64,000 bases of DNA from the NCBI GenBank assembly GCA_963805085.1, contig CAWDTA010000002.1, forward strand, positions 1,088,001 to 1,152,000, read 5' to 3'. Source of the DNA: an uncultured Veillonellaceae bacterium (GTDB taxonomy: Bacteria > Bacillota > Negativicutes > JARBTT01). The translations under genes and the position numbers were made by a program. Shown one piece after another: positions 17,728 to 53,436 of this stretch (within the stretch, counting starts at the first letter, position 1; each line of letters begins with the position of its first letter). The notes under the pieces were generated by a model, which was given only the letters and a program-made list of their open reading frames with translations, had not been told where the DNA came from and did not search any database.

Positions 17728-18696
17728 TTGAGTAAACCTATTATTTTTATGTTTTCGGGTCAAGGATCTCAATATTACCATATGGGAAAAGAATTGTATT
17801 TTCAAAATAATGTATTTAGGCGTTGGATGGTAACACTAAACGATATAGTATATAAAAATGTAGGTATTTCAATTATTGATGAAATATACAATGAAAACAA
17901 AAAGAGAAGTGAACCATTTGATCAGCTTTTGTATACACATCCAGCTATTTTCATGATAGAGTATTCATTAGCTCGTACTTTAATAGAAAGTGGAGTGGAA
18001 CCTGATTATGTTTTAGGAGCAAGTTTAGGAGAGGTTACTTCAGCAACAGTTGCGGGTATGATTTCAATTGAAAAAACGATAGAATGTATCTTAAAACGGG
18101 CGGAATTAATTGAAAATTATTGTGAATTAGGAGGTATGATAGCGATAATTAACAATCAAGAACTATATCATCAAGTTCCTATATTTACACTTAATTCAGA
18201 ATTAGCAGCAGTTAATTATTCTTCCCATTTTGTTATTTCTGGTACTAGAAATAAGTTAATAAAAATTGAAGAATATTTAAAAGACAGAAATATTCTTTTT
18301 CAAACACTTCCCGTAAGATATGGTTTTCATTCTTCGAATATTGATTCCATAGAAAGTGAATATGAAAAATTCTTGTACAAGTCATCATTTAAAAAAGCTA
18401 AAATATCGGTTATATCTTGTTTAACAAGTGGATGTATTACCGAGGTTTCTCCCCAATTTTTTTGGGATGTTTCTAGGCAGCCAATTTATTTTCAAAAAAC
18501 CATATTAGAGCTTGAAAAAAAAGGACAATTTAATTATATTGATGTGGGACCATCTGGAACATTGGCTACTTTTGTGAAAAAAATTTTAAATAAGGATTCG
18601 GTATCTCAAATTTATGATATTTTAACTCCTTTTAGTCAGGGGATTAAAAAGCTTGAAAGATTAAAAGAACTTTTCAATGTAACTAAGATATCCTAA
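17728..18696 (+). CDS. pksD: Trans-AT PKS acyl hydrolase / proofreading acyltransferase (PksD/PedC-like)
   Basis: N-terminus FMFSGQGSQYYHMGKEL resembles B. subtilis PksD as recalled; active site GASLG and YGFHS; RBS AGGAGG before the TTG start. Confidence 0.8.
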   Translation: MSKPIIFMFSGQGSQYYHMGKELYFQNNVFRRWMVTLNDIVYKNVGISIIDEIYNENKKRSEPFDQLLYTHPAIFMIEYSLARTLIESGVEPDYVLGASLGEVTSATVAGMISIEKTIECILKRAELIENYCELGGMIAIINNQELYHQVPIFTLNSELAAVNYSSHFVISGTRNKLIKIEEYLKDRNILFQTLPVRYGFHSSNIDSIESEYEKFLYKSSFKKAKISVISCLTSGCITEVSPQFFWDVSRQPIYFQKTILELEKKGQFNYIDVGPSGTLATFVKKILNKDSVSQIYDILTPFSQGIKKLERLKELFNVTKIS

Positions 18697-18737
18697 TGCA
18701 GAGTCAAAACGTTTGTTATTGTAATACATTCAATATA

Positions 18738-18807
18738 CTTTAAAGAGAGAGCTTATCCAGGATTCTCATAATGAGCGTTCTGAATAAGCTCTCTCTCTTT
18801 TTAAAGT
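18738..18807 (+). terminator. Long hairpin with T-tract after the pksD-like gene
   Basis: AAAGAGAGAGCTTAT...ATAAGCTCTCTCTCTTTTT. Confidence 0.6.
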
Positions 18808-19291
18808 CCGGTAAAAAGGAATATCTCCAACAATAATTTTTTGACCAAGAGCTAGGTTGACGGTTGTCATTTAAATTTCTGAACAAACATTACCCGTTTC
18901 AGAACTGTTCCACATTTCGATCTTCTATCAATATCCAGCTTATTATACCATTTCCAGTTGATTAGAACATATTTCAAAAGGGATCTTAACTGTGATTGGT
19001 TTGCCAATATTGCCCCGATTTTAATTGACTGAAAAAGATTTTGCAAAAAAATAATAAAATATTAATAAAATATTAATGGAAAGTTAATGGAAAATTAAAA
19101 TTAAATACCATATTTGGACAAAATTTTCAAAAAAAATGATGTAATATGTAACTAGCACATAAAATAAATTAATTATTGAAACATTAGTGTAAAGAGTAAA
19201 ACTGATCTTTGGAGAAATAGACACGTAAAATTGCAATAGGGATGTGCTGAGCTGGAAAAAAATTATGGAGCAAAAAAACTAAACTCTATTT

Positions 19292-21646
19292 ATGAAAGGG
19301 GATAACAAAAGGATGGTTACATACGTTTTTCCGGGACAAGGATCTCAAACGAAAGGAATGGGTAATGGCTTATTTGATGAATTTGAAGAACTCACATTAC
19401 AGGCAGATGGTGTTTTGGGATATTCGATTAAGGAACTTTGCTTGGAAGACCCGAATCAAACAATTGGGATGACTCAGTATACTCAACCGGCTTTGTATGT
19501 TGTAAATGCATTGAGTTATTTACAAAAAGTGAATAATACCGGGGAAAAACCAGATTTCGTTGCTGGACATAGTTTAGGAGAGTATAATGCATTATTTGCG
19601 GCAGGCGCATTTGATTTTGCTACAGGATTAAAATTAGTACAAAAACGAGGAGAATTGATGAGCCATGCGATTGGCGGTGGAATGGCTGCCGTCATTGGAT
19701 TAACAGCAGAGCAAGTGGCTGATGCTCTGATAAGTAATGGCTTGGGAAATATAGATATCGCAAACTATAATTCTCCCACACAAATTGTTATTTCAGGCAA
19801 AAGAACCGATATTGAAAATGCACAGCCTATATTTGAAAGAGTTAAAGGCGTGAAAATGTATGTTATTCTAAAAACTAGTGGGGCATTTCATTCACGATAT
19901 ATGGAACAATCAAGAAAAGAATTCGAAGGTTTCATAAGTAACTTCCAATTCTCCGAATTAATGATTCCTGTAATCTCGAATTTTACCGCAAGGCCATATA
20001 AACAATCAGAAATTAGACAGAATTTAATTCAGCAAATCACCCATCCAGTTAAGTGGACAGAAAGCATTAGATATTTAATGGGATTAGGAGAAATGGATTT
20101 TGAGGAAATAGGTCCGGGAAAAGTTTTAAGTGGATTGGCTCGACGCATAGAAAATGAAGCAGAGCCTTTAATCGTTAGTCAAGATGAGCAGAGTATAGAT
20201 ACTCTAGTAAAAACCGCAGAAGAACATAACGTAGTACCTATTAAAAGTCATAAAACTGTAGCAAAAGAAGCGATTAGGGCAGAACAAAAGCTGATGTTAT
20301 CAGCTTCTTCATTAGGGAGTTTAGAGTTTAAAAAGGATTATGGCCTTAAATACGCTTATCTAACAGGTGGAATGTATCGAGGGGTTGCCTCGATAGACAT
20401 GGTAGTTAAAATGGGAAAGGCTGGTATGATGGGGTATCTTGGAACAGGTGGTTTACAGTTACCTGAAATTGAACAAGCAATTGAAAGCATTCAGCAGGGA
20501 CTATCCGCGGGTGAATCATATGGCATAAATTTATTACATAATCCGAATAATCCCGAAAAAGAAGAGCAAACTGTTGATATTTTTCTGAAACGTGGAGTTA
20601 AAAAAATTGAAGCTGCAGCCTTTTTGAATGTGACTCCAGCATTAGTTAAATATCGTGCCAAAGGCTTAAAATGCAATTTACAGGGAGAAATTTTAGTGCC
20701 CCAAAAAGTTATGGTCAAGGTCTCTCGTCCGGAAGTGGCGGCAGAATTCTTAACTCCGGCGCCGGAACGGATTGTGTCGAAATTGCTTGAGGACAATAAA
20801 ATTACAAAAGAAGAAGCAGAACTGTTAAAGAAAATTCCTATGGCCGATTATATTTGCGTTGAAGCTGATTCAGGCGGTCATACTGATGGCGGAGTGGCTT
20901 ATACATTAATGCCGGCTATGATTAAATTGCGCGATGAAATGATGAAAAAACATCAATACATTAAGAAAGTTGGAATTGGATCTGCAGGTGGGATTGGGAC
21001 ACCTGCAGCTGCAGCTGCAGCATTTATCTTAGGTGCAGATTTTATTCTGACAGGTTCAATTAACCAATGTACGGTAGAAGCGGCTACCAGCGATAATGTT
21101 AAGAATCTATTGCAACAAATGAATGTTCAAGACACTGAATATGTGCCTGCTGGAGATATGTTTGAAATCGGCGCTAAAGTGCAAGTGCTGAAAAAAGGAT
21201 TATTCTTTCCAGGGAGAGCAAATAAATTATATGAATTGTATCGGAAATATAATTCTCTAGATGAAATAGATGAGAAAACTAAGAAACAAATTCAGGAAAA
21301 ATATTTCAATAGAAGTTTTAAAGAAGTATATGAGGATGTTAAAAAGTATTATCCTCCTCAAGAAATCGAAAAGGCGGAGCGTAACCCAAAACATAAAATG
21401 GCGCTGATTTTTAGATGGTATTTTGGCTATAGTAGTCAACTTGCGTTAAAAGGAGATGAAAAAGGTAAAGTCGATTATCAAATTCACTGCGGGCCGGCAT
21501 TAGGCGCATTTAATCAATGGATTAAGGAAACACCTTTGGAAAATTGGCAGAATAGGCATGTTGATGGAATTGCGGAAAAAATAATGGCGGAAGCAGCAGT
21601 TTTATTAAATCAACGTTATAATACGTTGATGAAGAATTGTATTTAA
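19292..21646 (+). CDS. pksE: Trans-acting malonyl acyltransferase fused to a PfaD-type FMN enoyl reductase (PksE/BaeE-like); likely start 19313
   Basis: AT: FPGQGSQ, GHSLG, SGAFHS (malonyl type). ER: [38 protein letters not shown]. Confidence 0.9.
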
Positions 21647-22056: not shown

Positions 22057-25000
22057 GTGAAGATAGACATTGCAACGAATTCGAGGGAGATAGCCATAGT
22101 GGGGATGGCCTGTAGATTTCCAGGTGCTCCTGATTATGAAACTTTTTGGGATAATTTATCAAAAGGAATTAGTTCTATTCGCGAAATTGATCGTTGGAAT
22201 TTTAATGAACACTATTCTCCTAACGGGAAGGATAATAAATCAATAGGCAAGTGGTGTGGACTACTTGATGATATCGATAAGTTTGATAACAATTTTTTTC
22301 ACATTTCCCCTCGTGAGGCCATCCATATGGATCCGCAGCAGAGAATTTTATTGGAAGAAGCTTGGCATTGCATTGAAGACTCAGGGATATCTTTAAAGGA
22401 ATTGCAACAAAAGCGGACTTCTATTTATGTTGGTACTGTGGCGATGGATTTATATCAAGGGTCACCTGATGAAAAGGATCTAGATATGTATTCAGGAACT
22501 GGAATGTATCGATTTATGTTAGCGAATCGACTATCTTATTTTTTAGGGTTAAGTGGTGAGAGTATTGTTCTTGAAGCGGCATGTGCTTCTACATCAGTAG
22601 CAATTTGTAATGCTAAGAAAGCATTACAAACAGGTGATTGTGATTATGCACTTGTTGCAGGTGCTAATTTACATACGTCGCCATTAAGACATCAAATATA
22701 CTTAAAAAATCGTATGTTAAGTAAAGATGGAAAATCTAAAACTTTTGATAAAGATGCTGATGGTTTTATAGCAGGAGAAGGGGTCGGATTTTTATTATTG
22801 CAATCCTTAGATAAAGCTGTCCAACAGCAAAGTCATATTTTTGGAGTGATTAAGGGATGTGCAGTTAATCATGGGGGGAAAGCTGTTTCTTTATCGGCGC
22901 CGCGTGTGGAGGCACAACGGGATGTTATTCTAGCTGCATATGAAGATGCTGAGATTAATGCTGAAACAGTTAATTATATCGAAGCACATGGTACTGGAAC
23001 ATCATTAGGGGATCCTATTGAAGTAGAAGCTTTAACACAGGCTTTTCAAAAGTTTACATCGGAAAAGCAGTTCTGCAAAATAGGTTCAGTAAAAACAAAC
23101 ATTGGTCACTTAGAAGCAACAGCGGGAATGGCTGGTGTTATTAAGGTATTATTGATGATGCGTCATAAAAAAATACCACCTACTTTGAATATAAAAACAG
23201 TAAATCCAATTATTGATTTTAAAAATTCCCCTTTTTCTATAGCAAATGAATTGACTGAATGGAGCAGCCGAGATGGATTACCATTACGAGCAGGCGTGAG
23301 TTCTTTTGGATTAGGTGGTGTTAACAGTCATATCCTACTTGAAGAATATCCAGATAAAAATACAGTTGTTGATGCTGCCATTGTAACGAAGTATCCGTTT
23401 GTACTTTCAGCTAAAAACGAGAAAAGCTTAGAGGGTATGTTAAATAAATGGCGATCCTTTGTAAAAAGTGATGCATTTACTCAATATGGGCTTCGTGATA
23501 TTTGCCTGACTCTATTAACAGGACGGGAGAATTTACCTGTTCGTTATGGTAGCCTGATTTTAAATAAAATTGAATTAGTAGAGTTACTTGATAAAACGAC
23601 ATCTGCATTTTTAAATAAGGTAGATGAATCGTGGGGACTATGCGTTGGAGATTTTGTATGGAACAGCTACGCAGAGTTGGAACCTATAATTGAAGAATTC
23701 CCTATATTTAAGGGGAATTTAGATAAAGTGCTGGAATCTATAGAAGAATATGATAAAGGCAGGAAGATTAAAAAAGGATTTTTAGCTACAACGTGGCCTA
23801 AATCCAAAATAAACCTGTATTCTTTTATTGCAAATTATACTTGTATATCTACTCTGGTCGATTTGGGACTCTCGTTAAGCTTAATTACTGGAGTAAAAAG
23901 CGGGTTATGGGTTAGTTTAGTTGTGAGTGGTGCGACAAGTTTAGGAGAAGTTATAAAGGTTTTATGTGGTGAAAAAGCGGTAGACAAAATTGAGGTTGCT
24001 CGTCCACTGATCTCTTTTTATGATCCAATAAACAAAACAGTAATTAAACCCTACGCTTTTGAAGAAGAATATGTACAGGACTTAATCAGTGAATTAGAAA
24101 TATCTGATAACGTTATTGAGCATTATTGGGAAAAGGCGCACTTATTATCTGAAAATCAATTTACTTTCATTCACTTTTTAGACGAATGGGATAGTAATTT
24201 AAAAGAGGTTGGATTAGATATTAAAGCACTACTTGCCGATAAAAATGTTTTAAGGTTGAAAGACGAAAAAAACTATAAAAAAACCTTATTACTTATGGTT
24301 GTTATATTGAGTTGTTTGTATAGACTTAATCTAAAATGGAAATTATCTGAACACAAATTAATAAAAGATGAACGGTTTTATGAGCTACTTGATCTAGTGC
24401 TGGATGATGTAATACCAAAAGATATATTAATTGCTTTATTGACAAGTGAAAAACCGGATTTGACAATTGTTATCGATACATTGAAAGAACGGCAGAGCAA
24501 AATCAATATATGTAAATCGTATAAATGCTTAAAACAACGCAGCCGAAAAGTAACTGACATAGCAAATATTGGTCAGTGGGCTAAACAGATGCTGATACAG
24601 GAAGATTTAGTATCTTTACCTGCTATGGAGTATATAGATTTTGGTAAAATAGCTAATAGAAATCCAGCGAAGAAAACAATTATTTTTAACAAAAAAGAAG
24701 ATATTCTGGTCGCAATTCATGAGGTGCTAAATAGTTTATGGATCCGGGGCGTAAATGTCCAATGGGATAAAATGTACACTGAAAATTCTTTTCAGAAAAA
24801 ATCTTTACCTGTTTATGTCTTTGATCGAACATCATTTTGGTTACAGGATAATAGAGCGAAACAAGCTACGGATTTTAATGAGGTAGTAGAAAAAAATGCT
24901 ACAGTAGATAATTTTCTTCATCCCCTTGTTCATAAAAATACATCTAGCTTTTTCGAAGAGCGGTTTAGTTCGAAATTTACTGGACAAGAATTTTTCCTGA

Positions 25001-38000: not shown

Positions 38001-39960
38001 CAAGGTAGAAACTTCGATACAACCCATTGAAGATAAAAAGGAAGAAGTTTCATCTAATAAAAGACAACATTCCCGGTTTGTAAGAACGATGGCAGTATCC
38101 GCAGAAAAATCGATTGCAAACAATTCGGAACCTATTGCAATTGTAGGGATGAGTGGCATATTCCCTATGGCCAAAGATGTAAATGAACTTTGGACAAACC
38201 TTGTGGAAGGCAAAGATTGCATTACGGAAATTCCTAAGAGTCGTTGGGATTGGCAAGAGTATTATGGCGATCCTAAAAAAGAAGCCAATAAATCAAACGT
38301 TAAATGGGGAGGATTTATTGACGGCATAGATGAGTTTGATCCGTTATTTTTTGGAATTTCTCCTAGAGAAGCCGAGCTAATGGATCCTCAACAGCGGTTA
38401 CTAATGATTCATGCTTGGAAGGTTATTGAAGATGCTGGATATTCGGCGCAAAGCCTTTCAGGAACAAAAACAGGTATGTTCGTGGGAACCATGAGTACCG
38501 GTTACAATCAATTGATTGCCGAGGCAAATGTAGCCATCGAAGGGTATTCTTCTACAGGCATGGTTCCTTCGGTTGGACCAAATCGAATGAGCTATTTTCT
38601 CAATATTCATGGTCCTAGTGAACCGGTTGAAACGGCTTGCTCCAGCGCATTAGTTGCAATTCATCGGGCAGTAAGCGCCATAGAAAATGGAAGCTGCGAG
38701 ATGGCACTGGTTGGTGGTGTCAATACACTGGTAACACCAGAACTTCAGATCAGTTTCAACAAAGCAGGAATGCTATGTGAAGATGGACGATGCAAAACTT
38801 TTTCAAATAAAGCGAATGGTTATGTACGAGGCGAAGGTGCTGGGATGATTTTTCTGAAAAAGCTTAAAGATGCAGAACAAGCAGGAGATCATATTTATGG
38901 AGTGATTCGAGGCAGTGCTGAAAATCACGGAGGTCGTGCAAATTCCTTGACGGCGCCTAATCCAAAGGCGCAGGCAGAAGTGCTAAAAGCTGCTTATACT
39001 AAGGCGGGGATTGATCCGAGAACCGTTACTTACATTGAGGCGCATGGAACTGGTACGGAGCTGGGTGATCCGATTGAAATTAACGGGTTAAAAGCAGCCT
39101 TTAAAGACCTCTACCAAGCCACAGGAGATTCACAGGTCGTAAGTAGTCATTGCGGAGTGGGTTCGGTAAAAACCAATATTGGTCATTTAGAAATGGCTGC
39201 AGGAATTGCGGGTGTAATTAAAGTCCTATTGCAGCTTAAACATAAAACGCTGGTTAAAACCCTTCATTGCGATACGATTAATCCGTACATTCAGCTTAAA
39301 GACAGCCCATTCTATATAGTTCAGGAGACTAAGGAATGGAAAACCGTACAAGATGAGAGGGGCAACGATATTCCGCGGCGGGCTGGAGTGAGCTCGTTTG
39401 GATTTGGGGGCGCCAATGCTCACGTAATAATTGAGGAATATATTCCAAAGAATCAGGAACAACCTCAAGGCTCGCTTGCCAATGGTAATCCTGTAATTAT
39501 TGTATTATCGGCTAAAAATGAAGGGCAACTCAAAGAACAGGCGCGGCAATTATTGTCCGGAATACAGAAACAACAATTTTCAGATGCTAGTTTAGCGGAT
39601 GTGGCCTATACACTCCAAGTGGGACGTGAAGCAATGGAAGAACGCTTGGCCATAATTGTTGGATCTGTCAAAGAACTCGAAGAAAAATTAAAGGGTTTTA
39701 TAAACGGACAAAATGGTATTCCAGATTTATATGGTGGAGGGGTCAAACGAAATAAAGATACTATAGCTATTCTTGCAGCAGATGAAGATATGCCAAAGAT
39801 TATAGATGCTTGGATTGCCAAAGGGAAATTTAAGAAATTACTAGACATGTGGGTTAAGGGTTTAAACTTTGATTGGAATAAGTTGTATGGCGATATTAAA
39901 CCGAGTCGTTTGGGTCTCCCAACCTATCCTTTTGCTAAGGAGCACTATTGGGTTCCGAAA
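30100..39960 (+). repeat. Direct duplication (~5.1 kb period) of a DH-KR-ACP2-KS unit across PKS subunits 1 and 2
   Basis: Identical antisense shadow ORFs at 31536/36627 (offset 5091) and 34150/39226 (offset 5076); long identical DNA stretches in the KR and KS regions. Confidence 0.9.
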
Positions 39961-44000: not shown

Positions 44001-47000
44001 TTGAAAAAGTGTATGTGGGAGCAGAGAAAGTATTGGCCAAACTGTCTTTACCTAATGTTGTAACTAATACTGGAGACCAATATGTCTTGCACCCAAGTTT
44101 AATGGATTCTGCCTTACAGGCATCAATTGGGCTTTTAGGCGGCAATAATTTCAAACCGGTTTTGCCTTTCAATCTTCAAAATATAGAAATTATTAGTAAA
44201 TGCACGACGGTCATGTGGGCTCTGATTAGCTACAGTGAGGACAAAGCTAAAGGGCAAAGCCTGGACATTGATTTAAGTGATGAAAACGGAACAGTGTGCG
44301 TCAGGATGAGGGGATATTTAACAAGGGGGCTGGAAAGTGAAAGTTTGTTGAATAATATTGGAACACTATTGTTCTCTCCACGTTGGCAAGCACAAGAAGT
44401 TACCCGGGAAGCTACAGCTCCGGACTATGCCCAGCATTTGGCAGTACTTTGTGAACCGGATAATACTCTCCAGAAAAGCGTTGAAAGGCAGATGGAGGAT
44501 GTTCACTGTATTACTTTGCAATCCGTAGAAGAAGATATTGATAAAAGGTTCCAAACCTATGCTATTCAAGTGGTTGAGAAAATTAAGGACATTCTTGCAG
44601 ATAAGCCTAAAGGTAAGGTACTGTTGCAAATTGTGGTCACTAGCCAAAATGAACAGCAAGTTTTCTCCGGACTTTCGGGGCTTTTGAAAACAGCTCGGCT
44701 GGAAAATCCAAAAATCATAGGGCAGCTGATTGAAGTGGAAGCGGGAGAAGGCGGCGACGGGGTTGTAGAAAAACTTAAGGAGAACAGCAGGAGTCCAATT
44801 GATAGTCATATTAGTTATCAGGACGGAGCAAGGTATATCTCACGTTTCAGTCAATTGGAAATTCCCCAGGAACAAGTGGTTATCCCCTGGAAGGAACAGG
44901 GCATATATTTGATTACTGGAGGGGCTGGTGGACTAGGTCTTATATTTGCCAAAGAGATTGCTCAGCATGCTAAGGGGGCCACTCTGATCATTACAGGACG
45001 GTCTGCTTTAAGTGAAAACAAACAAGCAAAATTGCGAGAATTACAGTCGCTAGGAGTTCGGATTGAATACCGGCGGATTGATGTGACAGATAAAGAAGCG
45101 GTGTCAGCGTTAATCTATAGCATTCGGAATGAGTTTAAAGGCCTAAATGGCATTATTCACGGTGCCGGACTGATTCGGGATAACTTTATCATTAAAAAGA
45201 CCAAGGAAGAAATGCAAGAAGTTTTATTACCAAAGGTTACTGGGCTGGTAAACCTAGATCAGGCAAGTAGAGAACTGCCGTTGGACTTTTTAATTCTCTT
45301 TTCTTCAGCCGCCGGGGCTTTGGGCAATCCGGGACAGGTAGACTATGCAGCGGCTAATGCCTTTCTAAATGCCTATGCTAAGTACCGAAATTCACTGGTA
45401 GCCTTAACACAACGATACGGACAAACCATAGCAATGAATTGGCCGCTGTGGAAGGAAGGCGGGATGCGTGTTGATCAAGAAACCGAGAAGCTGTTAAGTA
45501 GCGAAGGTATTATCACGCTGCGGACCTCAAGCGGTATTAAGGCTCTGTATCAAGGAATGGGTTCCGGTGAAGAACAAGTCGTAGTAATAGAAGGCGATAT
45601 ACGGAGGATACAGGAGAGATTCTTAAGTACGCCGACAAAAACTGAATCACATCCTCCTAAAATGACGGTTTCGGAAATTGATACCGGAATACTGCGAGAA
45701 AAAACCCTATATCAGCTTGAAATGCTATTATCTAAAGTAACCCAGATAGATGCTGGAAAATTAGATGACGATGAACCTTTAGAGACTTATGGGATTGATT
45801 CGATCATCATTACTCAGCTCAATCATGAGCTGGCCGGAACCTTTGGAGAGATATCCAAAACACTATTTTATGAATATCAGACTTTGGGCGCCTTGGTAGA
45901 ATATTTTATTGCCGAACATACACAGACATGCAGGCAATGGACTGGACTAGTAACTGAAGTCCAGGCAAAGCCAGAAATATCGAAGAAACCTTTAACGGAT
46001 GTAGGCACTGATAATAAGGTTCCCGTTTTGACATCATGGGAAAAAGGCAAGAAGCAAAAAAGAAACTACCTTTGTACAAATTTAGATTCCAAAAACTTCG
46101 AACCTATTGCCATTATTGGTATGAGTGGGCGTTATCCGCAGGCAAAAACTCTCCAAGACTACTGGACGAATTTGGAATCCGGTAAGAATTGTATTACAGA
46201 AATTCCCCAAGAGCGCTGGCCGTTGGAGGGATTCTTCCAATCCGATAAACAAGAAGCTGTGGACCAAGGCAAAAGTTACAGTAAATGGGGCGGGTTTATA
46301 GATAACTTTGCGGATTTTGATCCCTTGTTTTTTAATATTTCGCTAAAGGATGCAAGAAATATGGATCCTCAGGAACGCTTATTTGTTGAATCCTGCTGGG
46401 CAGTGTTTGAGGATGCAGGATATACTAAGGAACAGCTTGCCGTAAAGTATAATGACCGAATCGGTGTTTTTGCGGGAATTACAAAAACAGGCTTTGAGTT
46501 ATACGGTCCTGATTTATGGAAGCAGGGTGAAAAAATATTTCCTCATACTTCGTTCAGCTCAGTGGCTAATAGGGTTTCCTACCTGCTGAATTTACATGGA
46601 CCTAGTATGCCGATTGATACAATGTGCTCTTCCTCGTTAACAGCGATTCATGAGGCTTGTGAACATCTCTATCGTGGAGAATGTGAAATGGCGATTGCGG
46701 GCGGCGTTAATTTGTATCTACATCCATTGAGTTATATTGGACTTTGTGCACAGCAAATGCTGTCTATAGATGGACAGTGCAAGAGCTTTGGACGAGGCGG
46801 AAACGGATTTGTGCCTGGTGAAGGGGTAGGAGCTATACTGCTGAAACGTCTATCCCAGGCGATAGCTGATGAAGATCATATTTACGCCGTTATCCGGGCA
46901 ACCAGCATTAACCATGGTGGAAAGACGAATGGTTATACGGTTCCCAATCCTATAGCCCAAGGGGAGATTGTCCGGGCTGTGCTGGATAAAGCAGGGGTAA

Positions 47001-50000
47001 ATGCCCGCGCAATCAGCTATATAGAAGCTCACGGTACGGGAACAGAACTTGGCGATCCGATTGAAATTACGGGATTAAGCCAGGCATTTGCTAAGGATAC
47101 CCAAGATACCCAGTTTTGTGCCATTGGCTCAGCAAAATCGAATATAGGTCATTTGGAAGCTGCCGCTGGGATTGCAGGAGTTACCAAGATTGTACTGCAA
47201 ATGCAACACAAAAAAATTGTTCCAAGCCTGCATGCCAAAGAGCTAAATCCTAATATCAATTTTGCCAAGACACCATTTGTAGTTCAACAAGATCTTGCGG
47301 AATGGAAACGACCAATAGTTGAGAGCAACGGAGTAAGTAAGGAATATCCAAGAATAGCCGGTATATCAGCTTTTGGTGCCGGAGGATCAAATGCTCACGT
47401 AGTGATTGAAGAATATATCCCGCAGGATACGGAGCGGTCTAACATTCTGATTGGTGAGCAGAGTCCTGCCATTATCGTATTGTCAGCAAAGGATGAAGAC
47501 CGTCTTAAAGCTAAGGTACAACAATTGCTCTCTGCGATTCAAAAACAAAAATTAAGTGATAATGATCTTGCCAATATCGCGTATACACTTCAGGTAGGGC
47601 GTGAAGCAATGGCAGAGCGCTTGGCTTTATTCGCAGGATCTATGAAAGAACTGGAAGAAAAACTAAAGGCATTTATAGCTGGTAAGAGTGGAATTGAAAA
47701 TTTGTATCAAGGTCAGGTCAAACGTAATAAAGAAACGCTTAATCTTTTTGCTGCAGATGAAGATTTGCAACAAGTAATCGATATTTGGGCCAGTAAAGGA
47801 AAATATGCTAAACTTTTAGATCTTTGGGTCAAGGGGCTAGTTTTTGACTGGAACAAGATTTATGAGGATGTCAAGCCTCGTCGAATCAGCCTGCCTACAT
47901 ATCCATTCGCAAGGGAACACTTCTGGATACCTAAAATTACCGATGATTTCCAAGTAACGCCGAAAAATCGACAAGGAAATGAGAAACGCAGCGCCTTGAT
48001 GTATCAAGGTGATCGTGTACAAGCATCAGAACCTTTAAAAGGCAGGCTGATTGCTTCTCCGCTGAAAGAAATGCAATTTGAATATATTATGAGTACTGAG
48101 AACTTTACTGAGCTTAGAGATAACCATAATGTGCTGCATGTTGGATATTATCAGGAAATATTGTGCGATGCTGTTAAGGCTAGTTTCAATACTAGCTCAT
48201 ATGTACTACATAATATTGAGTTCTTAACAGCTTTGAGGTTTGATGAAGATTCTGCCCGAGTTGTGAATCTGATCTTAAGTCCTGAAGATGAAAATGGTTT
48301 TATGAAGTTTCAGGTAAGTAGTCGGAAAACCGGGAAGAATAAATGGACGCTGCATGTAAAAGGAAGCCTTAAGATTAATAGGGATATTCAAGTTGATAAA
48401 TTGCCGGTTGAGCAATATCTTAATATTACCAAGGATGGGGAACAGTACACAGCCGACGAGTTTTACCAAAAAATATTTGAACAAGGTTTTCGTTTAGGTG
48501 ATAGTGTAAAATGGGTGGATCATGTATGGCATAGAAAGGGAGAAATTCTTGCCCGTTTTAGACCTTTCACTGAAATGGAGAAGTGGTGCAATTACTCTAT
48601 TGGGATTCATCCTGGTGTGCTTGATGCATGCGCACAACTTTTTGTTTTCGCCGGTCAGGAATGCCTGCCATCAGGTACCATCTTTATGGTGGTAGAAATG
48701 AAAGAATTCAGCTTTCATTGTGCAGGCAACAGGGATAAAGCTGTATGGTGCCATTTTGTGCTGGATAAAGATGGCCAGGATGGCGATTGTATACAAGGAA
48801 ACTATACGCTTTATGATGAAGATGGACTTATTCTGGCACAGGCGAGAGGAAAAAAAGTAAAAAAATTAAATATAAAAGGCTTAAAAACTATAGATCTGAA
48901 TCGTAGTCAAGCCGAAAATTTTAAGAAATCCTTATTGTCTGATGCAAATGATGGAAAATCATGTATGCAAGCTGAAGTATTGGAAGACTCATTGCGGCAG
49001 ATAATGGCTGAACAATTAGGTATGTTGCCGGAACAACTTGATACCGGTGAGTCACTGAGAGATTTGGGAATGGATTCAATTGCCGCCATGAACTTTAGAA
49101 GTATGGTTGAGAAGTCCTTGGGCACAAAGATTTCCGCGGAAGACTTACTGGAAGGACCGTGTATTAAGGAATTGGCTGCTACTTTGAATTCTCAATGGCA
49201 AAAATTGGATAAGGATGGCGAAGAACAAGAAAAAACTGAAATTGTTAAGAGTGAAGAGCTGGAGGATTCTTTGCGGCAACTAATGGCCGAACAATTAGGT
49301 ATGTTGCCAGAACAGCTTGACACTGGCGAGCCGCTGAGAGATTTGGGAATGGATTCAATTGCCGCTATGAACTTTAGAAATATGGTTGAGAAGTCCTTAG
49401 GTATAAAGATATCCGCGGAAGACTTACTGGAAGGACCGTGTATTAAGGAGTTGGCTACGATAATACAGACTGAATTACAAAATTCTGATCTTAAGCCTAA
49501 AAAATTGGCAACCGTACAGGAGCAATCAAAAGGGGCAAGTATATGGTATGCGCATAGAATTATCAATAAAAATGCTAAATTTAGACTCTTTTGTTTACCA
49601 TATGGCGGCGGGGGAGCCTCATTATATCGTGAATGGCAAGGAAAACTGCCGGATTATATTGAAGTATGTCCTATTCAGATGCCAGGTAAAGAAAACAGAA
49701 TAAAGGAAGTTCCTATTGACAATATTGATGACGCAGTAAATACGCTGGAAAAAGCTATCAAAACTGAATTAGATATTCCTTATGCCTTTTATGGGCATAG
49801 CTTGGGAGTACTAATTGGCTACAGACTATCTTACCGTTTATGGCAAACGGCAAAAAATAAACCTAGCCACTTCTTTGTGGGAGGTTTTAGCCGACCTGAG
49901 GCTATTCCTAATTTTAATCTTGGAAAGAGGCTTGCTATGTTAAAATCTAGAGGTTTTGACAGTATTCCCACTGTAAGTGAAATCGAAGCGTTACCAGCTG

Positions 50001-50341
50001 AACAGCTTGACTTCTTGGTGCACCAAATAGGGGGCATGGAAAATGTCGTTGTAGAGGACGACATAGCTAGGAAACTGATAGCGGCCGCTCTTTGTGATTT
50101 GAGAATTTGTGAGAGCTTTAAGTTTAAAGAGGAGCCTCCATTTGACGTACCGATTACTGTTTTTCACGGCATAAAGGATGAGCGTGTTCCGGTAGAGAGT
50201 ATGGAGGCATGGAAATTGAATACTACATCAGCCTTTAAACTCCATGTGCTACCAGGAAATCATTTCTTCCTAAATAAAGAGCAGTATCAAGATGAATTGA
50301 TGGCCTTTATTAAAGAAGATATAGATCTGCATATATCCTAA
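41036..50341 (+). CDS. Trans-AT PKS subunit 3: ACP-KS5-DH-KR-ACP-KS6-atypical hotdog (PT/DH-like)-ACP-ACP-TE
   Basis: ACPs GIDSI (x2) and GMDSI (x2); KS DTMCSS/HGTGT/GHLE twice; DH DHIVNGQRVLPG; KR GGAGGLG with IRD; TE GHSLG (~49793) and GNHFF. Confidence 0.95.
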   Translation: MNSKESLLAQQAEKTSCDGKKDSIEIESGQSPKPDFTEENKVVSAVGSQANMAFVSQVDQGILLEKTIYKLRGLFAEIIKLPIDRIDADEALEVYGIDSIMIIEFNKKLVNIFGELSKTLFFEYRTLETFAGYLIAHYSQDCVKWTGLVDQQRKRPEVDSAAVHSNEDLPVLTSLKASKKAGQNFTVKRPDKRTQEPIAIIGMSGRYPQAKDLNEYWKNLKEGKDCITEIPEERWSLEGFFNPDVQEAIAQGKSYSKWGGFVDGFADFDAFFFSIPPREAINIDPQERCFIESCWEVLEDAGYTKELLEKQYNRRVGIFAGINRTGFALYGPDLWKQGEKIFPYTQFGSVANRVSYLLNLQGPSMPIDTMCSSSLTAIHEACEHIHNGECEMAIAGGVTLYLHPSNYTQLCSLQMLSVDGQCKSFGQGGNGYVPGEGVGTVLLKRLSQAIADRDHIYAVIRGTGINHGGKTNGYTVPNPTAQGELIRTVLDKAGVDARAVSYIETHGTGTALGDPIEITGITQAFLKDTQKTQFCAIGSVKSNIGHLEAAAGIAGVTKIVLQMKHQKIVPSLHSKQLNPNIDFTKTPVVVQQELVDWKRPIIEINGEVKAYPRIAGISSFGAGGANAHVLIEEYIPDDHEDAQGMINNLDFAIIVLSAKNREQLKKQVQQLLAAIQEQQFSDNSLADMAYTLQIGREAMEERLAVAVRSIKELEEKLQGFLDDRDGIPDLYQGQVKRNKETLSIFKTDKELQEAMEKWIERGKYSQLMELWVKGLNFDWDKLYGEDKPRRISLPTYPFAKERYWVPEVVKKSSIITKASEGVVLHPLLQQNTSNFSGQRYSSIFSGQEFFLADHIVNGQRVLPGVAYLEMARAAIEQAEGLEAGEKRIGLKNIAWANPIVVNGQSVKVHIGLYPKENGEIAYEIYVGEDNAEPVIYSQGIAVFNPATEVPTLDLKSLQAQCSKGVLSSSECYDTFKAVGIEYGSAYKGVEKVYVGAEKVLAKLSLPNVVTNTGDQYVLHPSLMDSALQASIGLLGGNNFKPVLPFNLQNIEIISKCTTVMWALISYSEDKAKGQSLDIDLSDENGTVCVRMRGYLTRGLESESLLNNIGTLLFSPRWQAQEVTREATAPDYAQHLAVLCEPDNTLQKSVERQMEDVHCITLQSVEEDIDKRFQTYAIQVVEKIKDILADKPKGKVLLQIVVTSQNEQQVFSGLSGLLKTARLENPKIIGQLIEVEAGEGGDGVVEKLKENSRSPIDSHISYQDGARYISRFSQLEIPQEQVVIPWKEQGIYLITGGAGGLGLIFAKEIAQHAKGATLIITGRSALSENKQAKLRELQSLGVRIEYRRIDVTDKEAVSALIYSIRNEFKGLNGIIHGAGLIRDNFIIKKTKEEMQEVLLPKVTGLVNLDQASRELPLDFLILFSSAAGALGNPGQVDYAAANAFLNAYAKYRNSLVALTQRYGQTIAMNWPLWKEGGMRVDQETEKLLSSEGIITLRTSSGIKALYQGMGSGEEQVVVIEGDIRRIQERFLSTPTKTESHPPKMTVSEIDTGILREKTLYQLEMLLSKVTQIDAGKLDDDEPLETYGIDSIIITQLNHELAGTFGEISKTLFYEYQTLGALVEYFIAEHTQTCRQWTGLVTEVQAKPEISKKPLTDVGTDNKVPVLTSWEKGKKQKRNYLCTNLDSKNFEPIAIIGMSGRYPQAKTLQDYWTNLESGKNCITEIPQERWPLEGFFQSDKQEAVDQGKSYSKWGGFIDNFADFDPLFFNISLKDARNMDPQERLFVESCWAVFEDAGYTKEQLAVKYNDRIGVFAGITKTGFELYGPDLWKQGEKIFPHTSFSSVANRVSYLLNLHGPSMPIDTMCSSSLTAIHEACEHLYRGECEMAIAGGVNLYLHPLSYIGLCAQQMLSIDGQCKSFGRGGNGFVPGEGVGAILLKRLSQAIADEDHIYAVIRATSINHGGKTNGYTVPNPIAQGEIVRAVLDKAGVNARAISYIEAHGTGTELGDPIEITGLSQAFAKDTQDTQFCAIGSAKSNIGHLEAAAGIAGVTKIVLQMQHKKIVPSLHAKELNPNINFAKTPFVVQQDLAEWKRPIVESNGVSKEYPRIAGISAFGAGGSNAHVVIEEYIPQDTERSNILIGEQSPAIIVLSAKDEDRLKAKVQQLLSAIQKQKLSDNDLANIAYTLQVGREAMAERLALFAGSMKELEEKLKAFIAGKSGIENLYQGQVKRNKETLNLFAADEDLQQVIDIWASKGKYAKLLDLWVKGLVFDWNKIYEDVKPRRISLPTYPFAREHFWIPKITDDFQVTPKNRQGNEKRSALMYQGDRVQASEPLKGRLIASPLKEMQFEYIMSTENFTELRDNHNVLHVGYYQEILCDAVKASFNTSSYVLHNIEFLTALRFDEDSARVVNLILSPEDENGFMKFQVSSRKTGKNKWTLHVKGSLKINRDIQVDKLPVEQYLNITKDGEQYTADEFYQKIFEQGFRLGDSVKWVDHVWHRKGEILARFRPFTEMEKWCNYSIGIHPGVLDACAQLFVFAGQECLPSGTIFMVVEMKEFSFHCAGNRDKAVWCHFVLDKDGQDGDCIQGNYTLYDEDGLILAQARGKKVKKLNIKGLKTIDLNRSQAENFKKSLLSDANDGKSCMQAEVLEDSLRQIMAEQLGMLPEQLDTGESLRDLGMDSIAAMNFRSMVEKSLGTKISAEDLLEGPCIKELAATLNSQWQKLDKDGEEQEKTEIVKSEELEDSLRQLMAEQLGMLPEQLDTGEPLRDLGMDSIAAMNFRNMVEKSLGIKISAEDLLEGPCIKELATIIQTELQNSDLKPKKLATVQEQSKGASIWYAHRIINKNAKFRLFCLPYGGGGASLYREWQGKLPDYIEVCPIQMPGKENRIKEVPIDNIDDAVNTLEKAIKTELDIPYAFYGHSLGVLIGYRLSYRLWQTAKNKPSHFFVGGFSRPEAIPNFNLGKRLAMLKSRGFDSIPTVSEIEALPAEQLDFLVHQIGGMENVVVEDDIARKLIAAALCDLRICESFKFKEEPPFDVPITVFHGIKDERVPVESMEAWKLNTTSAFKLHVLPGNHFFLNKEQYQDELMAFIKEDIDLHIS

Positions 50342-50811: not shown

Positions 50812-51612
50812 GTGCGCAGTTTTATGATGAACGTAAGTTTGGTATTAAGAAAAGAAATTTTAAATGGATGCAATACATTTACGGATTATTTCTCCATAAA
50901 ATTATCTGAAAAAAGCTACAAAGTTTCTTTGAATTTTTCTAAATTTAATAAGTTTGATGCAAGTTTAAACATAAAAAATCTTCTTCATGACGTTGAGCGT
51001 AAATATTTTGAGACTCTTAAATATAATCGAAGAATAAATAGTTTCCTTTTAGGAAGATATTCTGCTAAAAGAGCCATTACTGCATTAGTTGGTAATGAGA
51101 AAGATTTTACAAAAATTCTTATCAAAAAGGGAGTGTTTAATCAGCCAATTGTAGATTGTGAGACATCCAGTAATATACAGGTCAGTTTAAGCCATAGTGA
51201 TGACCTTGCAGCAGCAATAGCATTTAATGATATGCTGATTTTAGGAATTGATATTGAAAAAGCTAGTAGGCATATCAATCAAGAAGTGGAAGCAGTGTTA
51301 ACACAATGCGAAAGGGACCTTTCTTTTAAAGTTCCATGCTCATATAGAAATTTTCTGTTAATGATTTGGACAGTAAAGGAATCTCTTTCTAAGGTTCTTA
51401 AAACCGGGTTAACAGTACCTATGCGCATTTTAGAAGTAAGAAATATTGAAGAGCTTGAGGGATATTGCGTCAGCACTTTTACAAATTTTCCACAATATAG
51501 TACAGTGTCCTTTATAGTGGAAGATTATGTTTGCTCGATTACATTCCCAAAAAATGTTGAAATATATATAGACATTAATAGGATAAAGGATAATTTATAT
51601 AAGATTTTATAA
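50812..51612 (+). CDS. 4'-phosphopantetheinyl transferase (Sfp-type, trans-AT-cluster associated); likely start 50824
   Basis: SFLLGRYSAK, GVFNQP, SLSHS, LGIDIE, WTVKESLSK; RBS AGGAGG at 50807-50812. Confidence 0.88.
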   Translation: MRSFMMNVSLVLRKEILNGCNTFTDYFSIKLSEKSYKVSLNFSKFNKFDASLNIKNLLHDVERKYFETLKYNRRINSFLLGRYSAKRAITALVGNEKDFTKILIKKGVFNQPIVDCETSSNIQVSLSHSDDLAAAIAFNDMLILGIDIEKASRHINQEVEAVLTQCERDLSFKVPCSYRNFLLMIWTVKESLSKVLKTGLTVPMRILEVRNIEELEGYCVSTFTNFPQYSTVSFIVEDYVCSITFPKNVEIYIDINRIKDNLYKIL

Positions 51613-51764: not shown

Positions 51765-51818
51765 AAAAAGTGTGCCTCAACAAAGACTTCATGAGCCATT
51801 GTTGAGGCACGCTTTTTT
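51765..51818 (+). terminator. Intrinsic terminator after the PPTase
   Basis: AAAAAGTGTGCCTCAACAA ... TTGTTGAGGCACGCTTTTTT. Confidence 0.7.
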
Positions 51819-52043
51819 ATTAGCGTATTTGGTAGTATAATTTCAAAACAATGAAAACAGCAAGAATACAATGTAAACTCTGTTGGAACACAAGCTTGTA
51901 ACGTATTATAATGTTCATCAAGGACCCTAATGTTTTTGTTTTACTATTTATGTTTCAGTATTTGCTACTGGAATTATTCTTAGTCATCGTAGTTCGGAGA
52001 TGTAATAAAGGCTTTGGTGATATATTAAAAATAAGGGGTGAAA

Positions 52044-52072
52044 TTGACAAAAAAATTAGGTGGGTGTAAAAT
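52044..52072 (+). promoter_or_regulatory. Sigma-A/70 promoter for the MFS gene
   Basis: TTGACA (52044-49), 17-nt spacer, TAAAAT (52067-72). Confidence 0.75.
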
Positions 52073-52078
52073 TAACTC

Positions 52079-52179
52079 AATTGATTAACTAGTTAACTAA
52101 TTAGACTGATAATAATAAAAAGAGTAAAAGATATAATTGGTGAAGCTGCTATTCTATATAGTTAACTAGTTAATCAATT
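52079..52179. promoter_or_regulatory. Two inverted 21-bp operator-like sites, each with the palindromic core TTAACTAGTTAA
   Basis: AATTGATTAACTAGTTAACTA (52079-99) and its exact reverse complement TAGTTAACTAGTTAATCAATT (52159-79), just downstream of the -10 element. Confidence 0.7.
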
Positions 52180-52218
52180 ATCGAAGGAAACAAATATATA
52201 AGTTAGTCTAATTTTTAT

Positions 52219-53436
52219 TTGCTAAAAAGGAGAGTATATATGAGTACTGTACAGTTGTGGACAAAAAACTTTATCGCTTTGATTTTATCCAATGCATTAA
52301 TGTTTGGAGGATTTCATATTTTGCTTCCGACGCTTCCGGTTTATGCTGCATATAACGGAGCAACAGGGACACAGATTGGGATTATTACTGGAATCTTTGG
52401 AGTTTCAGCTATCTTTATTCGACTTTTTACAGACTTAGGTGTAAAAACCATGGGAAAGAAAAATTGTTTGTACATTGGTTTACTTATTTCATTGATTTGT
52501 ACTATTAGTTATGCTGTATTTTCTTCAGTAGAAGGAATGATTATCACGAGGGTATTACATGGTTTTGGCTTTGGACTCACTACTACTTTTTCGGCTGCGA
52601 TTGCTGCAGATATTATTCCTGGATCGCGACGCGGCGAAGGTATAGGATATTTTGGTCTAGGAAGTACAGTCGCGATGGCTTTGGGGCCAGCTATTGGTGT
52701 CTGGTTAATTAGTGACTATGGATTTGTAGCTATGTTTATAGCTTCAGCAGTAGGTACTGGTATTGCTCTATTAGGAACAAAATTTTGCTATGTTCCTAAT
52801 AATGCTATTGCTAAGAAAAAAAATGAACTTCATGTATCTTTATTAGATAAGTTTTTTGAAAAAGGTACAGGAATTCCATCTTTACTGACAATGCTATTTG
52901 GAATTAGTTATGGAAGTGTTAATACCTTTATCGCAATGTTGGCACAGGAAGCTCATATTGCGAATTCTGGCTATTTCTTTATAGTCGGTACATTATGCGT
53001 GTTCCTATCTCGTCCGATAGGAGGAAAAATCTTTGATACAAAAGGTGCCGCGTGGATTATATTACCTGGATCAATTTTTTTACTTTTAGGGTTAATTGTG
53101 CTTATTAATACGAAATCGCTTAGTATGCTATTAGGAGCTGCGGTATTATATGGATTCGGTGGAGGCTTTTTACTTCCATCGCTCATCACATGGATGCTAA
53201 ATTTAGTACAGCCTAGTCGGCGTAGTGCAGCTAGTGCTACTTTTTATAATATGCTGGATGTTGGAACGAGTGCAGGCGCTATTTTACTTGGCATGGTAGC
53301 TGAAAAAACAGGATTTATTAGTATGTACAAGTATTCTGCTGGTGCTATGGTACTTTTTTTAATCGTCTTTGCACTTCAAACTTTGATAAGTAGAAGTGTT
53401 AGTGAGAAAAAAGAAGAGCTAATTGAGACTAAGTAA
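52219..53436 (+). CDS. MFS transporter (probable exporter); likely start 52240
   Basis: About 12 TM segments; RVLHGFGFG, DIIPGSRRGEGIG, RPIGGKIFD motifs. Confidence 0.9.
   Translation: MLKRRVYMSTVQLWTKNFIALILSNALMFGGFHILLPTLPVYAAYNGATGTQIGIITGIFGVSAIFIRLFTDLGVKTMGKKNCLYIGLLISLICTISYAVFSSVEGMIITRVLHGFGFGLTTTFSAAIAADIIPGSRRGEGIGYFGLGSTVAMALGPAIGVWLISDYGFVAMFIASAVGTGIALLGTKFCYVPNNAIAKKKNELHVSLLDKFFEKGTGIPSLLTMLFGISYGSVNTFIAMLAQEAHIANSGYFFIVGTLCVFLSRPIGGKIFDTKGAAWIILPGSIFLLLGLIVLINTKSLSMLLGAAVLYGFGGGFLLPSLITWMLNLVQPSRRSAASATFYNMLDVGTSAGAILLGMVAEKTGFISMYKYSAGAMVLFLIVFALQTLISRSVSEKKEELIETK

Follow-up and report, generated by a model that had tools for sequence, protein, structure and literature searches.

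An intact polyketide synthase (PKS) cluster of the trans-acyltransferase (trans-AT) type spans positions 17728 to 53436 of a 64,000-nucleotide stretch of contig CAWDTA010000002.1 (hereafter, the window) from an uncultured Veillonellaceae bacterium, apparently of soil or groundwater type (assembly GCA_963805085.1), with all relevant genes on the + strand (Table 1). It consists of an AT of the acyl-hydrolase type (AH), an AT fused to a trans-acting enoyl reductase (AT-ER), three megasynthases (PksA, PksB, and PksC) with six elongating ketosynthases (KSs), a 4'-phosphopantetheinyl transferase (PPTase), and an exporter of the major facilitator superfamily (MFS). The last module contains a dehydratase (DH)-like domain with a relocated histidine, here called DH*. 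We propose that the cluster, on balance, probably makes a 6-alk(en)ylsalicylic acid through ring closure assisted by DH*.

Domains were mapped with Pfam, first on the whole proteins and then on the megasynthases cut into 400-amino-acid (aa) tiles. The tiles returned the six modules (M1 to M6) in the order given by an earlier note on this DNA and added to it an AT-like remnant (AT0) in M1. Each of the six KSs is followed by a match to a RhiE-like or CurL-like linker, as in trans-AT enzymes, and PF00698 had no match inside PksA, PksB, or PksC. The spread of six KSs over three proteins also sets the system apart from iterative PKSs of the 6-methylsalicylic acid (6-MSA) synthase type, which are single polypeptides with the order KS, AT, DH/TH, ketoreductase (KR), and acyl carrier protein (ACP). 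No KR lies between DH4 and ACP4, and the intergenic gap between PksB and PksC is only ~150 nt. No hydroxymethylglutaryl-CoA (HMG-CoA) synthase (HMGS), enoyl-CoA hydratase, or methyltransferase (MT) domain was found in any window open reading frame (ORF) of at least 150 aa, in agreement with the earlier note, which had reported neither an MT nor an HMGS cassette and had correctly noticed a trans-ER. The sole HMG-CoA-synthase-like match of the genome is on another contig (C3, 206121-206567; 44 bits), outside the cluster. Among ORFs of at least 40 aa between 16300 and 22200, there was no free-standing ACP or loading enzyme.

The source genome is 83% complete, with 6% contamination. Its rpoB gene (contig C4, 99703-103128) is split over several frames and has internal stop codons, which suggests indel errors in parts of the assembly; the 28-kb PKS reading frames are intact. 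Judged by its gene and domain content, the locus is a complete six-module trans-AT polyketide synthase.

Table 1. Features of the PKS locus and its upstream neighbor (positions in the window; TE, thioesterase; CHH, Cys-His-His; C, A, and T, condensation, adenylation, and thiolation domains)
Feature	Positions	Strand	Description	Evidence
AH	17728..18696	+	AT-like protein, 322 aa, most likely a proofreading acyl hydrolase	Acyl_transf_1 8e-34; fabD 129 bits; GASLGE
AT-ER	19292..21646	+	Trans-AT fused to PfaD-type trans-ER	fabD 372 bits; PfaD family 698 bits; GHSLGE, GAFHS
PksA	22057..35052	+	4331 aa: KS1, AT remnant (~430 aa), DH1, KR1, ACPx3, KS2, DH2, KR2, ACPx2, KS3	Pfam tiles, motifs
KS1	22084..23193	+	Divergent, elongating, without upstream loading domain; begins at aa 10 of PksA	CHH motifs
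AT0	23614..24906	+	AT-like remnant, ~430 aa, catalytically dead; PksA aa ~520-950	
DH1, KR1, ACPx3	24919..27996	+	DH, KR, and three near-identical ACPs	Pfam tiles; DH1: HVIKDQKILPG, DAALQ
Exchange unit, copy 1	30104..34885	+	DH2-KR2-ACPx2-KS3, tandem duplication	93.9% identical to copy 2
PksB	35068..40884	+	1938 aa: DH3, KR3, ACPx2, KS4, DH4(0)	Pfam tiles
Exchange unit, copy 2	35189..39961	+	DH3-KR3-ACPx2-KS4, tandem duplication	Counterpart of copy 1
DH4	40003..40851	+	Inactive dehydratase of KR-less module	Orthologous domain is a 46-aa remnant in Pelosinus baikalensis
PksC	41036..50341	+	3101 aa: ACP4, KS5, DH5, KR5, ACP5, KS6, DH*, ACPx2, TE	Pfam tiles
DH5, KR5	43508..45457	+	DH with intact motifs; KR with IRD at LDD position	Motif check
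KS6	46100..47236	+	Elongating, precedes DH*	CHH motifs
DH* (DH6)	48008..48895	+	Double-hotdog DH-like domain with relocated His; proposed aldol cyclase and aromatizing dehydratase	
ACP6a, ACP6b	48989..49498	+	Tandem ACPs	Pfam tiles; DSI serine
TE	49583..50317	+	Thioesterase	PF00975 9e-28; GHSLG, GNH
PPTase	50812..51612	+	4'-Phosphopantetheinyl transferase	ACPS 4.4e-14
MFS	52219..53436	+	MFS transporter, probable exporter	MFS_1 1.7e-38; efflux-type NCBIfam matches all under cut-offs
NRPS	2-8317		Nonribosomal peptide synthetase, 5'-truncated; 3 C, 2 A, and 2 T domains and terminal NAD-binding reductase; aldehyde/alcohol release	

The Cys, HGTGT, and NIGH residues are kept in all six KSs, and the DSx serine is present in every ACP. 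DH1, DH2, DH3, and DH5 have both the His and the Asp motif, and the four KRs retain their Ser, Tyr, and Asn residues, with Leu, Asn, or Ile followed by Arg-Asp (xRD) at the LDD position. DH4 reads NYEVENQRVLSEV as opposed to DHIVxGQRVLPGV in the other DHs: Tyr takes the place of its catalytic His, and the motif has lost its Gly and Pro as well. Since M4 has no KR and a dead DH, its beta-keto group would stay. The last three modules (KR-less M4 with dead DH, DH-KR in M5, and KR-less M6) thus show the keto / reduced / keto pattern, at C7, C5, and C3, that the earlier note had assigned to them. ACPs that serve beta-branching have a flagging Trp, and this residue, judged by eye, is absent from the ACPs here.

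Five orthologues (91, 82, 75, 64, and 63% identical) were returned by a word-based search that used the last 802 aa of PksC as query, and one of them is from a named species, Pelosinus baikalensis. More distant relatives were found in Vallitalea maricola and Corallococcus exiguus. Mapped with hidden Markov models (HMMs) made from the window cluster's own domains, the P. baikalensis locus reads AT-ER; KS1-AT0-DH-KR-ACP-KS; DH-KR-ACP3-KS-(46-aa DH remnant)-ACP-KS-DH-KR-ACP-KS-DH*-ACP2-TE. It has five KSs versus six here, with the last three modules alike and one tail module fewer, and its AT-ER, which adjoins the PKS, is 71% identical to that of the window. The DH of its penultimate module has Glu replacing the catalytic Asp (HPSVMEAVLQ; protein P0004, locus L001). 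The earlier note had taken the source for a probable Negativicute, a placement that we treat as tentative: its support is the orthologue in Pelosinus (Sporomusaceae) and a TolC-type outer-membrane efflux gene upstream of the PKS, and near-identical proteins are labeled only as Firmicutes or Bacillota from metagenomes.

A short-chain dehydrogenase/reductase (SDR) gene at 16500-17240, 490 bp upstream of the AH gene, could reduce M4 in trans; the C7 ketone needed for an aldol reaction would then be missing, and a hydroxy acid, a polyene acid, or a delta-lactone would result. We consider this quite improbable. A blastp comparison (1e-10) with the DNA up to 55 kb from the P. baikalensis cluster found no match to the SDR, nor to the AH, PPTase, MFS, or NRPS/efflux genes of the window; because these genes have no counterpart there, the conserved core appears to be AT-ER plus PKS, with the SDR an unlikely member of the pathway. 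In related metagenome-assembled genomes (MAGs), the SDR shares a contig with the ABC and efflux genes that lie upstream. Moreover, the inactivity of DH4 here and its near-complete loss in P. baikalensis are in keeping with a module long used without reduction.

DH* is only 17 to 23% identical to DH1 through DH5 and lacks the HxxxGxxxxP motif. Its best solved sequence relative is the DH of CurJ, from the cis-AT curacin PKS (profile E value of 1.4e-39). Compared with CurJ DH, the DH* profile has Asn or Thr (N39) at the catalytic His, a deletion of three residues, and a His (H44) next to the canonical Pro; when the 150 best representatives were aligned to this profile, the H44 column was the very one that holds the canonical Pro in ordinary DHs. 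Both domains have the Asp motif (CurJ, DSCFQ; DH*, DxCxQ), whereas CurJ DH has the canonical His, a loop three residues longer, and a KR in its module. With N39 at the position of the catalytic His and no KR in M6, DH* is not a canonical PKS dehydratase.

In an alignment (A1) of eleven DH* domains from relatives 28 to 71% identical, H44, D206, C208, and Q210 were invariant and E35 nearly so. The family signature is D-[NT]-x-x-[VIL]-x-H-[VIM]-G, with the canonical His absent and the Asp of DxCxQ kept, and the window domain fits it with DNHNVLHVGY and LDACAQ. An AlphaFold (AF2) model built on A1 had a mean per-residue confidence (pLDDT) of 86.9, a predicted TM-score (pTM) of 0.86, and the double hotdog of DHs; its best structural match was CurJ DH (TM, 0.83; Z, 30.9). 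The product template (PT) domain known as PksA PT, not to be confused with the megasynthase PksA, scored a Z of 26.5, and the PT of AviM was not among the structural matches listed. Look-alikes of DH* in a protein atlas were generic PKS-DH clusters only.

We evaluated how common such domains are with an exhaustive HMMER search of 1.84 billion representatives, which gave 2354 matches at E<=1e-3 and 34 at E<=1e-30. The best matches were mostly proteins of ~1500 aa (KS, linker, gap, DH*, ACP, and TE) or the C-termini of larger trans-AT PKSs, and they derived almost wholly from MAGs. Among the best 150 representatives, 72 had the relocated His at H44 without the canonical His, 41 had the canonical His, and 37 had neither residue or were partial. 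A TE lay no more than 400 aa downstream in 53 of the 72 with the relocated His as opposed to 1 of the 41 with the canonical one, and DH* is nearly always found directly ahead of ACP-TE. Five DH* proteins (P0129, P0277, P0279, P0280, and P0285) end in an NAD-binding reductase (PF07993) rather than a TE and would release an aldehyde.

With two DH* motifs as seeds, a scan in which each species was represented by a single genome yielded 51 loci in Pelosinus, Vallitalea, Desulfobacterales MAGs, Paenibacillus, Myxococcus, Archangium, Corallococcus, Micromonospora, about thirty Streptomyces, Sulfidibacter, and others. Counted by clusters at 50% identity, the family has at least 72 members, and it occurs in at least 51 species genomes from the Bacillota, Thermodesulfobacteriota, Myxococcota, Actinomycetota, and other phyla. 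One of 40 sampled relatives has a DH* match, at 33% identity. Pfam maps of example loci identified trans-AT enzymes, with linkers of the RhiE type and, from KS to DH*, no more of an AT than a remnant. Six of the 51 loci were truncated, and the remaining 45, with at least two upstream KSs, were informative. The module preceding DH* (n-1) contained a KR in 37 of them; the module before that (n-2) had no reductive domain in 32 of these 37, had only a DH remnant in the P. baikalensis locus (L001), and could not be assigned in 4. The other eight informative loci are non-reducing throughout.

Some of these loci have features of their own. The penultimate module of L012, L016, L032, and many actinomycete and myxobacterial loci apparently has the unusual order KS-ACP-KR, with less than 90 aa from the KR to the next KS or to the end of the protein. 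In L032-type loci, genes for an HMGS and a FabG-like KR lie directly downstream of the TE, and no product is recognized for them. We also considered whether the Streptomyces loci might be glutarimide (cycloheximide/actiphenol) clusters and dropped the idea, as the closure of the glutarimide ring takes place once the chain has left the PKS (PMC12710063).

Most relatives pair a KR-containing, DH-less module n-1 with a DH-containing, KR-less module n. The same arrangement would be seen in a dehydrating bimodule (KS-KR-ACP followed by KS-DH-ACP), in which the last KS does not elongate and DH* dehydrates the hydroxyl left by the previous module. Such a function is extremely improbable: the Cys-His-His residues, including the His of HGTGT, are kept in KS6 and in 48 of 48 KSs that precede DH*, and M5 of the window cluster already has its own intact DH. 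Since the KS before DH* retains all three residues, the last module is expected to elongate, leaving a beta-keto group unsuited to direct action by a DH. In a FastTree phylogeny of 149 KSs, positional labels clustered strongly (9 changes versus ~78 in shuffles). KS5, KS6, and the terminal KSs from Pelosinus and Vallitalea formed one group (support, 100) within a 59-row clade composed mostly of KSs that follow a non-reducing module.

The route that we propose starts with the AT of AT-ER, which would load malonyl units in trans, and with the AH-type protein, which would remove stalled acyl groups. Because a loading module is absent, KS1 would be primed either by acetyl from decarboxylated malonyl or by an external acyl group, as acyl-CoA or acyl-ACP from primary metabolism. 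M1 through M3, each with an intact DH and a B-type-like KR, would supply an enoyl chain, whose units the trans-ER may saturate in some cases or in all. M4 is predicted to make no reduction, M5 to reduce and dehydrate, and M6 to elongate without a KR, and from these domain states the chain bound to ACP6 should be a 3,7-dioxo-4-enoyl thioester. The C6 protons of such a chain would be alpha to the C7 ketone and gamma to the C3 enone, and enolization would free rotation about C4-C5. A C2-to-C7 aldol reaction would then close the six-membered ring. The C7 hydroxyl of the aldol, being beta to the thioester carbonyl, would make an ordinary dehydratase substrate, and the relocated His and retained Asp of DH* could template the aldol reaction, remove the water, or both. 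Tautomerization would yield the aromatic ring, hydrolysis by the TE would release the 6-alk(en)ylsalicylic acid, and the MFS protein would export it.

With an acetate starter, the acid would be C14 here and C12 in the five-module version of P. baikalensis. The count of the earlier note is sound in this respect (acetate and six C2 units make an acid of 14 carbons, which with a saturated tail would be 6-heptylsalicylate). Its saturated tail from M1 through M3 is an assumption: a trans-ER is present, but the sequence reveals neither the starter nor the modules that the trans-ER serves, and heptyl is only one candidate among several for the tail. The oxidation pattern and the predicted ring are those of 6-MSA synthase (C7 keto, C5 reduced, C3 keto, and C1 thioester), whereas the window cluster devotes a module of its own to each step, with six KSs and no iterative enzyme. 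A shorter homologue, 6-pentylsalicylate, is the precursor of micacocidin.

The same 3,7-dioxo-4-enoyl intermediate would also permit a Claisen (Dieckmann) closure from C6 to C1 by the TE, which would release a 2-acylresorcinol instead of a salicylic acid, and fungal TE/Claisen cyclase (CLC) domains perform this type of release. The TE of PksC, however, is an ordinary PF00975 domain of the hydrolase type, and the published trans-AT precedents retain C1 as a carboxyl or an ester (PMC7318616, PMC7586987). This outcome is hardly probable.

The chain might instead be released linear, as a 3,7-dioxo-enoic acid or its decarboxylated methyl ketone, with DH* serving as a structural relic or a double-bond isomerase. 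The loss of the canonical catalytic His would suit this outcome, as would the E-olefin predicted from DH5 and the B-type-like KR5, which disfavors cyclization, and the failure of the psymberin terminal unit to aromatize a foreign chain (PMC11260071). We nevertheless regard linear release as unlikely. A 3,7-dioxo-4-enoyl thioester would be chemically prone to aldol closure, and the recurrent series of a keto module, a KR module, and DH*-TE would have no obvious purpose for a linear product. The invariance of H44, D206, C208, and Q210 among relatives 28 to 71% identical and the recurrence of the signature in 72 of the 150 top representatives argue that the His/Asp pair of DH* belongs to a selected active site rather than a relic.

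Several observations weigh against salicylate formation by DH*. DH5 is intact and KR5 has the B-type Asp, a combination that usually gives an E-olefin, which is unable to cyclize without isomerization. This caveat was raised in the earlier note and stands, in a softer form: some KRs paired with Z-forming DHs also have LDD (PMC11228615), and, given such exceptions to the rule that LDD means E and the double activation of C6, which would allow enolization and rotation, the E/Z problem is eased. Lacking the canonical His, DH* could be catalytically dead. Its fold leaves the function undecided, for in Foldseek and VIA-align comparisons of the model, DH*, ordinary DHs, a pyran synthase, an enoyl isomerase, and PksA PT all fell at Z values of 25 to 31, so that DH and PT are not separated. 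Some members of the family occur in beta-branching clusters or in fully non-reducing series, and the role of DH* may therefore be broader than salicylate formation; the domain maps of the relatives were made with small HMMs from the window cluster's own domains. KS5 and KS6 lie outside the main clade of KSs that precede DH* elsewhere, so DH*-ACP-TE, as a unit, has evidently had more than one kind of KS partner. In the engineered chimera, the psymberin terminus gave a pyrone and not an arene (PMC11260071).

The genera with published benzolactone clusters also failed to appear among the DH* relatives. The motif-seeded scan (51 loci) returned none from Pseudomonas, Chromobacterium, Chondromyces, Allorhizobium/Rhizobium, Gynuella, or Burkholderia, and a profile search (40 matches, proteins of 528-2000 aa) likewise returned none of these genera, both searches being bound to exact motifs or shared words. 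A tblastn search of plasmids with DH* found generic cis-AT-type DHs at 24 to 28% identity only and no rhizobial benzolactone plasmid. A kinship of DH* with the published clade of PT-like DHs is putative.

In the necroxime PKS, a terminal DH with divergent motifs was called PT-like, was implicated in salicylate formation, and served as a handle for mining ten related clusters (PMC7318616); the terminal PT-like DH of benzolactone trans-AT PKSs, mentioned in the earlier note, is indeed in print. For lobatamide, the salicylate was attributed to the last four modules, and comparable series were noted in psymberin and legioliulin (PMC7586987). Like the window cluster, the benzolactone enamide PKSs (necroxime nec, lobatamide lbm, oximidine, and apicularen) are trans-AT systems that end in a KS, a non-canonical DH, an ACP, and a TE without a KR, and a salicylate in which C1 is kept as the carboxyl is assigned to their last modules (PMC7318616, PMC7586987), as predicted here. 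They are, however, PKS/NRPS hybrids on the scale of 13 modules, which make macrolactones with enamide or oxime side chains, whereas the window holds a six-module pure PKS without NRPS, oxygenase, or MT, for which hydrolytic release of a simple acid is predicted.

The terminus of the psymberin PKS is ACP-KS-DUF-DH-ACP-TE (DUF, domain of unknown function), with a KS that accepts beta-keto chains (PMC11260071). This order matches the ~1500-aa DH* relatives, which have a KS, a ~430-aa gap with AT-remnant matches, DH*, ACP, and TE, and the series is benzene-forming, its KS natively taking a beta-keto chain (PMC11260071, PMC7586987). In the window, Pelosinus, and Vallitalea clusters, in contrast, the ~300-aa AT-remnant "DUF" is absent (a linker of ~100-190 aa joins KS to DH*), there are two ACPs, the KS belongs to another clade, and DH-KR rather than keto modules precede the terminus. 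The psymberin TE, furthermore, lactonizes. A biochemical precedent is provided by the DH-like PT of the orsellinic acid synthase AviM, an experimentally proven C2-C7 aldol cyclase with a His-Asp dyad, which, like DH*, has a DH fold without a dehydratase context and, as proposed for DH*, performs the aldol reaction on an ACP-bound chain (PMC9135731). AviM is an iterative KS-AT-PT-ACP enzyme, and its catalytic H949 was equated with H1345 of PksA PT (PMC9135731), whereas DH* has Asn or Thr where DHs have the canonical His, a new His five residues farther along, and a modular context. These differences make it less likely that DH* is an AviM-type PT but not that it works like one.

In the literature covered, which included few subscription journals, neither a Negativicute trans-AT PKS nor a modular alkylsalicylate synthase of bacterial origin came to light. 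Type III alkylpyrones (PMC9827899) were the only characterized PKS products of Negativicutes that we came across.

The window cluster contains two near-copies of one exchange unit. Aligned over 4789 bp, they are 93.9% identical in nucleotides (268 mismatches, 4 gap openings), and the paired domains are 99% (KS3/KS4), 95% (KR2/KR3), and 88% (DH2/DH3) identical. The copies are too diverged for the duplication to be an assembly artifact. The duplicated DH-KR-ACP2-KS unit crosses the border between PksA and PksB and ends three residues past LPTYPFAREHYW; the endpoint coincides with the LPTYPFx5W boundary, which was derived for engineering as the limit of evolutionary "exchange units" (PMC11260071). 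On this evidence, the extra module relative to P. baikalensis is the outcome of a tandem duplication.

A second kind of change is seen in P0003, a metagenomic PksC relative of 2658 aa that is 85% identical. It has a clean 417-aa deletion corresponding to PksC residues 1136-1552, which is exactly KR5, and its DH5 motifs are intact. Loss of KR5 would keep the C5 oxygen and turn the salicylate logic into that of a resorcylate, as in orsellinate versus 6-methylsalicylate. The ACPs also form repeats: three ACP-coding repeats with a 327-bp period and mutual nucleotide identities of 95.7-97.6% occupy 27116-28097 of the window. The triple ACP belongs to module 1 here and to the second module in P. baikalensis, whose first module has a single ACP. 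Triple-ACP modules, e.g., that of MmpB, are thought to iterate.

KS1 is only 41 to 49% identical to KS2 through KS6. A cis-AT origin was ruled out, since its best solved relatives are trans-AT KSs (408 bits for PksJ versus 351 bits for the cis-AT CurL). The AT0 region behind it had no Pfam AT match even at E<=10. Protein-language-model look-alikes of AT0 were acyltransferase (Acyl_transf_1) clusters in 21 of 30 matches, with top scores of 0.90-0.91, which provides a lead only. AT0 aligns with real ATs only near the nucleophile elbow, where Lys takes the position of the Ser (GVKSG here and GLKKG in P. baikalensis versus GHSLG in a real AT); it has no xFHS motif, and the hhalign probability was only 4.8%. 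The KS1-AT0 stretch (960 aa) is 61% identical between the window and P. baikalensis. AT0 is probably a structural AT relic.

The two remaining AT-like proteins differ in their motifs. The AHs of trans-AT PKSs have G(A/S/V)SL at the nucleophile, and true ATs have GHSL (PMC11775670). The AT of AT-ER scores above the fabD cut-off and carries both GHSxGE and xFHS, by which the same paper defines free-standing malonyl-specific ATs. The 322-aa protein, which the earlier note had called an AT, is indeed acyltransferase-like; its GASLGE motif, however, matches that of PksD/PedC-type AHs and its fabD score falls below the cut-off of 260.9 bits, and for these reasons it is most likely a proofreading hydrolase.

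A separate-looking cluster occupies positions 2-17240, upstream of the PKS. In addition to the truncated NRPS and the SDR, it encodes a Sfp-type PPTase, a MacB-like ABC protein with HlyD and a TolC-type outer-membrane efflux protein (OEP), and an ABC-2 transporter. The ABC, OEP, and SDR genes occur together on a single 35.9-kb contig in related MAGs, and none is near the P. baikalensis PKS. Downstream of the PKS, a 491-aa ORF on the - strand (53863-55341) matches methyltransferases only weakly and below threshold, with E ~1e-4 in the C-terminal portion, and has no counterpart in NCBIfam. It is followed at 55567-59866 by two genes for collagen triple-helix repeat proteins (233 and 1067 aa) with a GC content of up to 56% and a strong AT skew, and then by three glycosyltransferase genes. 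We take these genes to resemble those for the glycosylated collagen-like surface or exosporium proteins of spore formers.

Benzene formation by trans-AT PKSs has so far been proposed from architecture alone, and the PT-like label in necroxime comes without biochemistry in the accessible text of the paper (PMC7318616). The idea of ring formation is itself already known; what the window adds is a minimal model and a clean case of exchange-unit duplication and KR loss. A pathway of six modules (five in the cultured P. baikalensis) is small enough for expression as a whole and for mutation at H44 and D206, and, with no NRPS, oxygenase, or macrolactone steps, it would offer a direct handle on the aromatization step. 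The locus also presents three natural experiments, namely, a unit duplication with 94% identity, a species pair one tail module apart, and a relative with KR5 deleted.

More broadly, it is conceivable, if somewhat doubtful as a whole, that DH* represents a widespread class of terminal cyclase/aromatase exchange units in trans-AT PKSs, in which the move of the His to the canonical Pro position makes a dehydratase into an aromatase for aldol reaction and dehydration. Presence or loss of the upstream KR would then switch between salicylate and resorcylate, and TE or reductase endings would give acids or aldehydes. The window cluster would be the smallest natural form of such a system; its products would be phenolic lipids of the alkylsalicylate type, released free, and their chain length would evolve as entire exchange units are duplicated. 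If the alkylsalicylate assignment is true, these compounds would be a second kind of phenolic lipid in Negativicutes, besides the type III alkylpyrones.

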